From the sequence record KM501444: DNA of 64,000 bases; one strand, written 5' to 3'. Below the pieces are notes generated by a model that did no database searches, had not been told where the DNA came from, and saw only the letters and a list, made by a program, of their open reading frames with translations. Position numbers and translations under genes: made by a program. This DNA is from Shigella phage pSs-1. Shown here piece by piece: positions 25,727 through 40,504 of this stretch. Every line of letters begins with the position of its first letter. Position 1 is the stretch's first letter.

Positions 25727-26089
25727 TTAAAAGAATTTAAATTTTTTCTTTGACCTTTTATTAAACGCATCTTGTAGTTGCATTGTAATACATTTTTCTA
25801 CATGAGGAGCTAACTCAGCTTTTCTTTCTTGGTCAAGAACAGCAAAGTCCATTACGACTTTTCCATCAACCCAATCTAATTTTGTCACATACACAATGTG
25901 TGTAGAACCGTCTTCTAGTTTAATGACAATCTCCTGGATAACATTTTCCATGGCAGATTTAATTATCTTAAGAGATTCATTAAAAAGACGTTCTTTTCTT
26001 TCTTCTTCCCCCTCCGAAGAGGGGGATTCATCGATAATTTCTAGATCTAAATCTAAATCATCTTTATTCATTAAATTCTTCCATATCAC
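25727..26089 (-). CDS. 40: gp40-like protein (120 aa)
   Basis: synteny between 41 and uvsX; acidic N-terminus. Confidence 0.55.
   Translation of the reverse strand: MIWKNLMNKDDLDLDLEIIDESPSSEGEEERKERLFNESLKIIKSAMENVIQEIVIKLEDGSTHIVYVTKLDWVDGKVVMDFAVLDQERKAELAPHVEKCITMQLQDAFNKRSKKKFKFF
26008..26025 (-). other. stable UUCG-tetraloop hairpin inside gene 40 coding sequence
   Basis: ccccctc-cgaa-gaggggg (7-bp G/C stem). Confidence 0.5.
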
Positions 26090-27245
26090 TTAACTGATCT
26101 AGGTCAGTTTCTAAATCAGCTGCTGATTTACTTTTACTTTCTGGAGATTTAAATTTTTCAACCTTCGAGTTAATCAATTCATCAACTTCAGCTTCAACAA
26201 TTTCATTACTATCAATAGCACCTAACTGATAAGCGCGTTTAATAGCATCTCGGAATGGTTGATGCTTAAATAAAGGACCCCAGAATGTAGTGCAGTTGGT
26301 ATCTTTTGCACGCCAAGATTTTTCTTCGCGAATCATCTCGCCGGTTTCTTCGTCAAGAAATTCACGAGCATACCAGCCATTTTTAGGTTTTACCACAAAT
26401 CCTAATTCAAGAGCCATATCTAACAATCCAGAATAAGGATCGATACCACCGTCAAATTTAACATCAATAAAGAATTTACTTTTTTCTTTAACAGTACGAG
26501 ATTTTTCTACATTTAGAACAAATTGATACCCCTGAAGATCAGAACCATCTTTAATCTGGCGCTTACCGATAATGAATACAGTATCAGCCGAATACATTAC
26601 GCCTGTACCACCTGTCATCACGGTTTTACTAAACATTTCAATTGTTTCAATTGTATGGTTAACCGCAACACATGGAATGTTTTTAATACTAAAATAAGGA
26701 GTAACAATACGGAATAATGACTTCAGTGATTTAGCACGAGTCATATCTGCCACAGATTTTTCATTCAAGGCATCTTCCGTTTCTTTCTTAGAAGCCATAT
26801 TACCGATTGAGTCGATGAATACAATAACTTTTTCACCACGCTCAATAGCTTCAAGCTGATTCACCATATCAATTTTCAGCTGTTCAACTGACTGAATTGG
26901 TGTATGAATTACTCGTTCCGGGTCAACTCCCATGGATCGCAAATAAGCTGGAGTAATACCAAATTCGCTATCATAGAATAGACAAACCGCGTCAGGATAT
27001 TTGTTCAAATACGCCGCAACCATAGTCAAAGACATATTTGATTTAAAGTGTTTAGAAGGACCTGCAAAAATGGTTAAACCCGACTGCATACCGCCATCAA
27101 TCGCACCAGAAATAGCAATATTAAGCATTGGGATTTTTGTACGGATTACATCCTTTTCATTAAAGAATTTAGATGTAGTCAGTTCAGCAGTCATTTTAGA
27201 AGTGGAAGCTTTAATCAAACGGGATTTTAAATCTGCAATAGACAT
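26064..27245 (-). CDS. uvsX: UvsX recombinase (RecA-like)
   Basis: 393 aa; near-identical to recalled T4 UvsX (391 aa) with small differences. Confidence 0.92.
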   Translation of the reverse strand: MSIADLKSRLIKASTSKMTAELTTSKFFNEKDVIRTKIPMLNIAISGAIDGGMQSGLTIFAGPSKHFKSNMSLTMVAAYLNKYPDAVCLFYDSEFGITPAYLRSMGVDPERVIHTPIQSVEQLKIDMVNQLEAIERGEKVIVFIDSIGNMASKKETEDALNEKSVADMTRAKSLKSLFRIVTPYFSIKNIPCVAVNHTIETIEMFSKTVMTGGTGVMYSADTVFIIGKRQIKDGSDLQGYQFVLNVEKSRTVKEKSKFFIDVKFDGGIDPYSGLLDMALELGFVVKPKNGWYAREFLDEETGEMIREEKSWRAKDTNCTTFWGPLFKHQPFRDAIKRAYQLGAIDSNEIVEAEVDELINSKVEKFKSPESKSKSAADLETDLDQLSDMEEFNE

Positions 27246-27322
27246 TCATTTTTTCCATAGGCAACATTATATTTTCCTCACTGGTTAAAGATAGAGTAAT
27301 TATAACACAATAAATTTAGGCA

Positions 27323-28171
27323 TTAATCAACTGCTATTGGATGAATAGCATTAAACTTATGAAACGCTTCTGATTTTTCTTTGCGCGAAACACACATGCG
27401 AAGAACCTTTAATGGCTCGTCTTCTTCACCCAACGATTTTCTCTTTTCAATATTCGATGTTTTCCAACGAGCTTGCTCTGGAAACTCTCTATTGATTTGC
27501 TCAAGAGCTCTATTATGTTTTGAATTACTACGAATTGAACTACATCCGCCGGGAGCTTGCGCTTTTCCGGATACAACCAGATATTTGAACAAGGCCAAAT
27601 GCGGATAACCTTGATTAATTAAATTGAGAAATGCATACATATCTTCGCATAAATCAATTTTTCCATACCCAATCTGTTCTGTTGTAAGTTTTCCAAGGTC
27701 ATACCAGGTATTCGTGAATCCATATGAATTTTCACGATAATTACCCCAAGATGAAGTAATTTTAAAAATAGGCAGACGAGCATGACCATGATAATACCCA
27801 CAATCCATGGCATCTTCAACGTATTGAATCAATTCATAGAACTGTTCACGAGTTAACTGATTAATTTTATCTACGCAGCGACGATCATCTTTCTTTCGCA
27901 TTGAACTCATACGAATAGTAGTATCATCATCAATCATCCAAATTCGTTGACCTGCATACATATCAGTAATTGCTTTACGAGTACCAGCAATTCCGTTAAC
28001 ATCATCAGGAATAGTTATAATTTTAGCTCTAGACCCGTAAGCGTCATAATAAGCTTTTTCTTCGTGTTCACGTACTACAATATGAGGTTCATAATCAGTC
28101 GGAAACATATCAAGGGCAGAAACTGCCCCTACGCGTTGATAGCTTGGAATTACGAATTGAATCATTTCCAC
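27323..28171 (-). CDS. DxD-motif glycosyltransferase-like protein (282 aa); candidate DNA hmC sugar transferase
   Basis: occupies the uvsX-42 locus where T4 has beta-gt; RIWMIDDDTTI DxD-like motif; not T4 beta-gt-like. Confidence 0.45.
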   Translation of the reverse strand: MEMIQFVIPSYQRVGAVSALDMFPTDYEPHIVVREHEEKAYYDAYGSRAKIITIPDDVNGIAGTRKAITDMYAGQRIWMIDDDTTIRMSSMRKKDDRRCVDKINQLTREQFYELIQYVEDAMDCGYYHGHARLPIFKITSSWGNYRENSYGFTNTWYDLGKLTTEQIGYGKIDLCEDMYAFLNLINQGYPHLALFKYLVVSGKAQAPGGCSSIRSNSKHNRALEQINREFPEQARWKTSNIEKRKSLGEEDEPLKVLRMCVSRKEKSEAFHKFNAIHPIAVD

Positions 28172-28902
28172 TCACCGTTATAATCTTTTTTCACAATATG
28201 AGTTTCGCCAGTATTCCACCAATGATCAACCAAGTAAAAATGACGAGAATATACATGAAGACTTCCAACATTCCATATAATAGAACCTGCTTTATACTGA
28301 CGAGTTGAATCACCTGCATTCAAATCAGATACTAATTTATCTAGTACGTATTTTTGCCATGCATAATCATTACGGAATCCGAAGACCACGTCATTTGAAC
28401 GCATGCTTACTACTGCATTGACTTTCTTATCACGAATCAGGTACTGTACTGTATTCGTACACATGAAATCTGACATACCATCTTTATTGTAGTCAAACTG
28501 CATGGATGGACGAGTATAAATCATGATACCACGCCGAGAATCAGGATTTTGACCAAGCTCAGCTAAACACATATCATACTGGGCATAGTTATCTTCTGAC
28601 CAAATAGCCCAACCATAATTCGAATTAATTTCTCCTTTAGAAGATGCTACCTGCTGCCAAATCTTTGGTGTTTCACCTGGAATATCTTTAACAAACAAAC
28701 TTTTAGATTTATACCATTCAAGTTCACGCTGAATGTATTCATCATTAAGAGCGCCAAAAATAAACGGTTCATCTGCTACAAATGATGCGCCAATAATTTC
28801 AATAGTTTTAACACCAGTTTTATCAACTACGAAATCTTTTTCCTTTAATGCAAGCCCCAAATGAAGACGGATTTCTTCAACTGTCATAGAGTCACTAATC
28901 AT
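28162..28902 (-). CDS. 42: dCMP hydroxymethylase gp42
   Basis: 246 aa as T4 gp42; thymidylate-synthase-like. Confidence 0.88.
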   Translation of the reverse strand: MISDSMTVEEIRLHLGLALKEKDFVVDKTGVKTIEIIGASFVADEPFIFGALNDEYIQRELEWYKSKSLFVKDIPGETPKIWQQVASSKGEINSNYGWAIWSEDNYAQYDMCLAELGQNPDSRRGIMIYTRPSMQFDYNKDGMSDFMCTNTVQYLIRDKKVNAVVSMRSNDVVFGFRNDYAWQKYVLDKLVSDLNAGDSTRQYKAGSIIWNVGSLHVYSRHFYLVDHWWNTGETHIVKKDYNGEWK

Positions 28903-28909
28903 TTAAACC

Positions 28910-29059
28910 TCAATTGATACATTCATATTTAACTTGTAACAGTAATAAACCCCAACCTATAATAAGTGGCGGAATCATAAGAGGAACTGTTACGCTATAG
29001 TATATACTTATTATAATCATCAAGATTAAAAGCAATACTGCTAAAATTTTGCTTTTCAT
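28910..29059 (-). CDS. small membrane peptide (49 aa)
   Basis: ATG overlaps imm stop (ATGA); hydrophobic; below track cutoff. Confidence 0.35.
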   Translation of the reverse strand: MKSKILAVLLLILMIIISIYYSVTVPLMIPPLIIGWGLLLLQVKYECIN

Positions 29060-39286: not shown

Positions 39287-39303
39287 AAGGGCCGAAGCCC
39301 TTT
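39287..39303 (-). other. UUCG hairpin at alpha-gt stop
   Basis: aaagggccgaagcccttt. Confidence 0.5.
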
Positions 39304-40504
39304 ATTTTGTAATAATGTCAAACTGTTCTTTAAAGCAGAAGCTTGAATCTTGATGCTGATACAAAAATTCATAAGCTTTTTCGCGTTCACGGTCATAAAG
39401 AGCTCGGTCAGATGACAGTTCTTTAATACGCTCAAATGTTGATTCCATGTCATTTTCATCAAACCAAACGATACCGCTATCATGAGAAATTAACGGAGTA
39501 TTATCAACACGGAATTTTAAATTTTCGCCAGTAGATTTCCAAAATACTGGAATTGTTCCACATGCACCAAGCTCGAGATGAGTATATTCTAAAGAACGTT
39601 GTAGATATTTTTTGTCCAACTTACTCAACTGATAACCAAATCCGGATTTACTCATGCGTTCAAGCATTTCGCTATTTACATAACGGTCAAGAATTTGCGT
39701 TGGCAAATTAGGAGCAATTTTAATTTGGTCTACTTGATGAAGACGATAATACTCATATGGAATTCCTTTTTCTTTAATAGGAATGAACGCTGGAGAACGT
39801 TCCAGACCTTCCATAATAGTACTTAGTCCTGCAGGTTTAAGATGTTTTTCGTGAAAATCAAACATCTGATAAAAACCTTTCCATGTAGTCGTACGACCAA
39901 TCCAACGGTTGACATTCATGTTAATTTCAGAAACATCTTTCCAATAGGTTGATCGAACTTTCGCAATATCCATAGGAGGCTGAAAGTTGTATACAGTCGG
40001 TGCTTCTTCAATATCATCAAACAGAGAAACTGTTTCTGGATACCATTCTTTCATCAAAACTTTATTAAAATCGCCATTATCAGAATGGCTAAAAATAACA
40101 TCAGCTCGACGAACAGTTTCTTCTAATCCCAAATTTCGGCGCAAAGAAAGAGAAGAATGGTCATGTTGATAAACTACAACACGAACCGAAGGTTTAATGT
40201 TATCAATAATTTTTTTATAGTTATTAATAGTGTCTTCTTCGACTGAAGTAGCAGGAACTGAATTGATAATTAGAATATCACAATCATTTACCAGCTTAAG
40301 TGTTTTATCGTATTCTTTTGCCAATAAAACCGGAATTGAAAATGATTTATAATCATGCGCGCAATTACGAGTAAATGATTTATCTTTAGCATAAACCAAA
40401 GTTACTTCATGACCATTTTTAATAAACCAATCACGCTGCTCAAGAGAAAATTTAGTTACGCCACAACCTTCAAGACCTCGAGCCATAAAAATGCATACTT
40501 TCAT
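39302..40504 (-). CDS. a-gt: alpha-glucosyltransferase (hmC DNA)
   Basis: 400 aa as T4 alpha-gt; synteny between 47 and 55. Confidence 0.85.
   Translation of the reverse strand: MKVCIFMARGLEGCGVTKFSLEQRDWFIKNGHEVTLVYAKDKSFTRNCAHDYKSFSIPVLLAKEYDKTLKLVNDCDILIINSVPATSVEEDTINNYKKIIDNIKPSVRVVVYQHDHSSLSLRRNLGLEETVRRADVIFSHSDNGDFNKVLMKEWYPETVSLFDDIEEAPTVYNFQPPMDIAKVRSTYWKDVSEINMNVNRWIGRTTTWKGFYQMFDFHEKHLKPAGLSTIMEGLERSPAFIPIKEKGIPYEYYRLHQVDQIKIAPNLPTQILDRYVNSEMLERMSKSGFGYQLSKLDKKYLQRSLEYTHLELGACGTIPVFWKSTGENLKFRVDNTPLISHDSGIVWFDENDMESTFERIKELSSDRALYDREREKAYEFLYQHQDSSFCFKEQFDIITK

Follow-up and report, generated by a model that had tools for sequence, protein, structure and literature searches.

In phages T2 and T6 the 5-hmC of the DNA is glucosylated first by alpha-gt, and ba-gt then adds a further glucose in beta-1,6 linkage, giving gentiobiosyl-hmC (PMC6024577, PMC13216743). 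When ba-gt is missing from T6 the DNA carries alpha-glucosyl-hmC only (PMC11078745; bioRxiv 10.64898/2026.02.25.707755). The T6 enzyme, TAGT, is a GT-A glycosyltransferase and sister to GT2, whereas both alpha-gt and beta-gt belong to the GT-B class (PMC13216743). Solly-type phages, like T6, encode alpha-GT and TAGT, the latter 'at the position syntenic with' T4 beta-GT, and are devoid of beta-GT (PMC13390438). Analysis of Solly virion DNA by HPLC/MS gave about one third of 5-hmdC and about two thirds of alpha-gentiobiosyl-hmdC, with alpha-glucosyl-hmdC at background level only (PMC13390438). The grade of second glucosylation differs greatly between phages, since gentiobiosyl-hmC amounts to about 5% in T2 DNA according to classical data (PMC6024577) and to 72% in T6, despite proteins that are approximately 98% identical. 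In the Durham phages EL, BGP and Geo an intermediate 1:2:2 ratio has been described (PMC13390438).

The locus studied here belongs to Shigella phage pSs-1 (KM501444), of which a stretch of 64,000 nucleotides, hereafter the window, was analyzed. A preliminary description had placed a 282-aa ORF with a DxD-type motif, RIWMIDDDTTI, at 27323-28171 between uvsX and gene 42, and a 400-aa alpha-gt elsewhere in the window. Both genes were found, on the minus strand; the ORF at 27323..28171 has 282 codons when counted from a GTG, is flanked by uvsX and gene 42, and contains the peptide RIWMIDDDTTI, with the DDD codons at 27931..27923. The features on which the following comparison is built are:

26064..27245, minus strand: uvsX recombinase, the downstream flank of the ba-gt locus (PF21134, T4_UVSX_C, E 4.7e-39, plus PF00154, RecA).
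27323..28165, minus strand: coding sequence, very probably of ba-gt (also ggt or TAGT), beta-glucosyl-HMC-alpha-glucosyltransferase, 280 aa plus stop from the likely start (PHROG 842, PF20691, identity to T2, T6 and Sfk20, GT-A model).
27923..27931, minus strand: D79-D80-D81 (GAT GAT GAT), DxD motif of the predicted GT-A fold (sequence; invariant in the nine-member alignment).
28162..28165, minus strand: ATGA overlap of the gene 42 stop and the ba-gt start (sequence ...GGTGAGTGGAAATGATTCAA).
28162..28902, minus strand: gene 42, dCMP hydroxymethylase (PF00303, E 1.1e-15; syntenic with gene 42 of T4, T6 and T2).
39302..40504, minus strand: alpha-gt, DNA alpha-glucosyltransferase, 400 aa (PF11440, AGT, E 5.2e-236; 397/400 identical to Solly alpha-gt).

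Translation of ba-gt likely starts at ATG 28165, which yields a protein of 280 aa. This codon is preferred because GTG 28171 is located inside gene 42 and because all the annotated orthologues inspected begin at ATG; the GTG is merely the first in-frame start codon, within the gene 42 end, and was discarded. The annotated proteins of T2, RB14, Sfk20 and Solly have 280 aa as well. Around the start the sequence reads ...GGT GAG TGG AAA TGA TTC AA..., so that ATG 28165 shares the ATGA with the TGA stop codon of gene 42, and the same four-nucleotide overlap is annotated in Sfk20, T2, RB14 and Solly. The overlap suggests that translation of ba-gt is coupled to that of gene 42. The GC content and skew of ba-gt resemble those of the neighbouring genes and therefore give no compositional hint of a recent foreign origin. 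A scan for promoters and terminators between 26900 and 29200 yielded the counts expected from shuffled sequence, and no transcription signal stood out in that interval.

Between imm and gene 42 there is a conserved hydrophobic ORF of 49 codons (28910..29059, minus strand; sequence MKSKILAVLLLILMIIISIYYSV...), whose ATG overlaps the imm stop codon as ATGA and is preceded by GAGAAGGA. The frame is open at equal length in T4, T2, T6 and Sfk20, with no CDS annotated there in any of the four; the names given to it are gp42.1 in RB14 and 'Phage protein' in Solly. The ORF probably corresponds to a real small membrane protein that has been inconsistently annotated.

The results indicate, with a probability of roughly 95%, that the gene is ba-gt (ggt, Pfam TAGT) and codes for a beta-glucosyl-HMC-alpha-glucosyltransferase of the T2/T6 type, which adds the second glucose onto alpha-glucosyl-hmC. 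The protein matched PHROG 842, 'beta-glucosyl-HMC-alpha-glucosyltransferase', with an E value of 1.9e-89 along profile positions 3-269 of 270. The only significant Pfam family was TAGT (PF20691, TET-associated glycosyltransferase), with residues 5-209 aligned to profile positions 2-205 of 205 and a score of 38.8 bits, above the gathering cut-off of 27.5 bits. Over 280 aa the protein is 99% identical to those of T2 and RB14, 98% identical to that of T6 (both records), and 100% identical to the annotated one of Shigella phage Sfk20. A megablast search with the gene retrieved 473 phage records, each along the full length and with at least 90% nucleotide identity; they are mainly Tequatrovirus phages of Escherichia, Shigella and Yersinia, and beta-glucosyl-HMC-alpha-glucosyltransferase is the common annotation. 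The order uvsX, ba-gt, 42 is common to the window, T2, T6, Sfk20, RB14 and Solly, and over 24 kb the window aligns, at the same coordinates, with Shigella phage sb2 and further Tequatrovirus genomes at an identity of 97.7%. The suggestion of the preliminary description that the ORF could be a second-sugar transferase as in T2/T6 is thus borne out by the identity to the T2 and T6 proteins, the PHROG 842 and TAGT matches and the synteny. The novelty that it implied did not hold, as the gene is a textbook one carried by about 470 sequenced phages. Indeed, ba-gt is already known and present in most sequenced Tequatrovirus genomes; the published work covers its fold, the synteny with beta-gt and the consequences for defence systems. 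The primary reference for its cloning is said to be Winkler and Rueger, 1993.

A search through about 5.8 billion proteins recovered only 11 clusters of ba-gt homologues, most of them with PF20691, whose identities range from 99% to 48% (Serratia phage PS2), plus one member at 29%. In an alignment of nine sequences, reaching down to 32% identity, the invariant residues include the N-terminal IPSY-x-R (R11), D79-D80-D81, D175 (within the pair E174-D175), G206-G207, S209 and R212. Sequence search of the PDB identified no solved-structure relative; the lone match, an RNA-binding protein at E 0.78, was considered noise, and a weak Pfam RNA_binding match (E 0.15), below the cut-off, was taken as chance. 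An AlphaFold2 model built on the nine-sequence alignment was of moderate quality (pTM 0.74, mean pLDDT 71.5), with the 130 N-terminal residues confidently placed and the loops 130-150 and 190-211 below a pLDDT of 50. As modelled, the protein would adopt the GT-A fold of nucleotide-diphospho-sugar transferases, with GT2 as the nearest family; its DxD motif, D79-D81, comes after the fourth beta strand (E74-78). The modelled fold and its nearest family reproduce the published result for T6 TAGT (PMC13216743). With the Pfam TAGT family the protein shares the whole domain, matched above the gathering score, the GT-A model and the conserved DxD. However, that family was named for members adjoining TET/JBP dioxygenases, whereas here the hmC comes from the nucleotide-level pathway of gene 42, and the acceptor is the sugar on the base and not the base.

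The partner genes that this activity calls for accompany ba-gt, since alpha-gt and the dCMP hydroxymethylase gene are both present in the 64-kb window, and beta-gt is not found there. In the proposed pathway gene 42 would provide hm-dCMP, the first modification step, to be built into the phage DNA; alpha-gt would place an alpha-linked glucose on 5-hmC, thereby generating the acceptor of ba-gt; and ba-gt, by analogy with its orthologues, would move a second glucose from UDP-glucose to the first one in beta-1,6 linkage, to produce gentiobiosyl-5-hmC. In GT-A enzymes the DDD/DxD motif is the site of metal and UDP binding, and GT2 enzymes use an ED catalytic motif. On these general grounds, D79-D81 would bind a divalent metal and the diphosphate of UDP, and the anomeric configuration would be inverted, from UDP-alpha-glucose to a beta linkage. 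The catalytic base would be an acidic residue, possibly in the invariant E174-D175, a pair reminiscent of the GT2 ED motif.

Comparison with T4 separates what is common to the two loci from what is not. The uvsX-42 interval of T4 is occupied by segA and beta-gt, and ba-gt fills that slot in the window. The two transferases have in common the genomic position and the UDP-glucose donor; both act after alpha-gt, and in both cases the linkage made on phage hmC DNA is beta. Nevertheless, they display no sequence similarity (BLASTP E = 3.4), and their folds differ: T4 beta-gt is GT-B, ba-gt is modelled as GT-A, and the two-domain GT-B fold of the T4 beta-gt family is not found in ba-gt. The acceptors differ as well, being the glucose of alpha-glucosyl-hmC for ba-gt and the hydroxymethyl group of bare hmC for T4 beta-gt. 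A tblastn search with T4 beta-gt detected no homologue in the 64-kb window (best E 2.4), and by analogy with the relatives the presence of beta-gt elsewhere in the genome, beyond the window, would be excluded. The lack of resemblance to T4 beta-gt, as stated in the preliminary description, is upheld by both searches. At the T4 beta-gt slot, ba-gt is a non-homologous replacement and not a product of divergence. The GIY-YIG homing endonuclease gene segA, located in T4 between uvsX and beta-gt (NC_000866 23570-24235), was omitted from the preliminary description; tblastn with T4 segA likewise revealed no homologue anywhere in the 64 kb of the window (best E 5.1). Only a 77-nt spacer (27246..27322) separates ba-gt from uvsX, and the same is seen in T2, T6, Sfk20 and Solly.

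The likeness to T2 and T6 extends from the protein (280 aa, 99% and 98% identity, respectively) to its uvsX-42 position, the ATGA overlap, the alpha-gt and gene 42 partners and the absence of beta-gt. The differences are few and conservative: the window protein has K92 and I101 instead of R and V, and it has neither the substitutions private to T2 (R11H, P251S) nor those private to T6 (Y40N, D55G, R106H).

Both public T6 genome records contain private lesions in ba-gt, different in each, and the window gene has neither of them. In MH550421 (4950-4976) codon 10 is an amber TAG, homologous to window 28136-28138, and the protein is annotated from M20; this lesion is unique among 471 records. In AP018814/NC_054907 (about 1135-1145) three nucleotides of the GATGATGAT run are deleted, converting DDD to DD in the DxD motif, a change unique among 472 records and homologous to window 27923-27934. 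Either mutations of particular stocks or errors of sequencing might explain these lesions, which are of importance to users of T6 as a gentiobiosyl reference.

All the T2 records and SV76 share an 86-nt stretch in the N-terminal part of ba-gt that is seen in no other record and that encodes R11H (codon 11 in AP018813, homologous to window 28133-28135), at a position where R11 is invariant down to 32% identity. As judged from this conservation, R11H may be a hypomorphic allele behind the low gentiobiosylation of T2.

That the enzyme modifies DNA in the manner of T6 has to be weighed against other readings. The ORF might be nonfunctional, open merely by chance or left over from a decaying gene. 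Nothing was found in favour of this, the sole imperfection being the longest-ORF call from the GTG inside gene 42. The frame is intact over its full length with every family-invariant residue present, conservation in 473 records and the PHROG 842 match (E 1.9e-89) are far beyond chance, and the protein is 100% identical to that of a phage whose gene differs by 1.3% at the DNA level, which indicates purifying selection on ba-gt. Taken together with the identity to T2, T6 and Sfk20, this reading is effectively refuted and hardly deserves any credence. Transfer of another sugar or formation of another linkage, for instance of arabinose as in RB69-type phages, would produce a hypermodification absent from T2/T6. 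The TAGT family is diverse, with homologues from other phages that retain as little as 29-50% identity, and the sugars of phage DNA vary (PMC6024577, PMC13390438). However, an identity of 98-100% to enzymes with measured products leaves almost no room for a changed specificity, the hmC/alpha-gt pathway of Tequatrovirus is present here, and the arabinosylating Mosigvirus phages begin from 5-hydroxy-dC and not from 5-hmC (PMC13390438). An altered sugar or linkage is thus very improbable. An arabinosyltransferase of the RB69/Mosigvirus type in particular was dropped on the near-identity to glucose-transferring enzymes and on the hmC/alpha-gt pathway.

More weight is due to the possibility, unlikely as it is, that the enzyme is weak here as in T2, in which case the DNA would be mainly alpha-monoglucosylated with a few percent of gentiobiosyl-hmC. 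The extent of second glucosylation does vary among near-identical enzymes, because T2, with a gene 99% identical, reaches only about 5% (PMC6024577), and EL, BGP and Geo show the 1:2:2 ratio (PMC13390438); such an extent is uncertain and is not readable from sequence. On the other hand, the window protein has neither of the T2-private substitutions R11H and P251S, R11 being family-invariant, and just K92R and I101V separate it from the protein of Solly, whose DNA is about two thirds gentiobiosyl-hmC. It is this proximity to Solly, with ba-gt identical at 278/280 positions and alpha-gt at 397/400, together with the composition measured for Solly DNA, that makes a T6-like or Solly-like pattern the most likely one, in which the virion DNA would contain mostly gentiobiosyl-hmC and some bare hmC. 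On the same analogy, beta-glucosyl-hmC would be absent and alpha-monoglucosyl-hmC scarce. Two further leads, quite unlikely, are that the K92/I101 allele, with R11 and DDD intact, might lead to second glucosylation that is unusual in its extent or in its sequence context, or that the T2-private R11H might explain the gap between T2 (5%) and T6 (72%). If the R11H lead were true, the wild-type-like allele of the window would be a useful reference. Both leads are refinements of a known system and not a new one.

The sugar coat of the DNA is set by ba-gt, and the presence of gentiobiosyl-hmC instead of mono-glucosyl-hmC alters which host defences can attack. This applies to GmrSD/BrxU-type enzymes of type IV restriction, to CRISPR nucleases and to glycosylases such as Brig1 and BapA. 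Deletion of ba-gt in T6 results in higher sensitivity to Brig1, and gentiobiosyl-hmC resists this glycosylase in vitro (PMC11078745). Gentiobiosyl-hmC is likewise not a substrate of BapA, which cannot strip its glucose (bioRxiv 10.64898/2026.02.25.707755). However, GmrSD-type enzymes still act on gentiobiosyl-hmC, and GmrSD on gentiobiosyl-methylcytosine (PMC13216743). The changed susceptibility to modification-dependent restriction anticipated in the preliminary description is therefore documented for the orthologues. In the phage studied here a gentiobiosyl pattern would protect from enzymes specific for alpha-glucosyl-hmC and would not protect from GmrSD/BrxU-type restriction. Although the assignment adds nothing new for biology, it is of use in phage annotation and in the prediction of host range, for example in the design of phage therapy cocktails.
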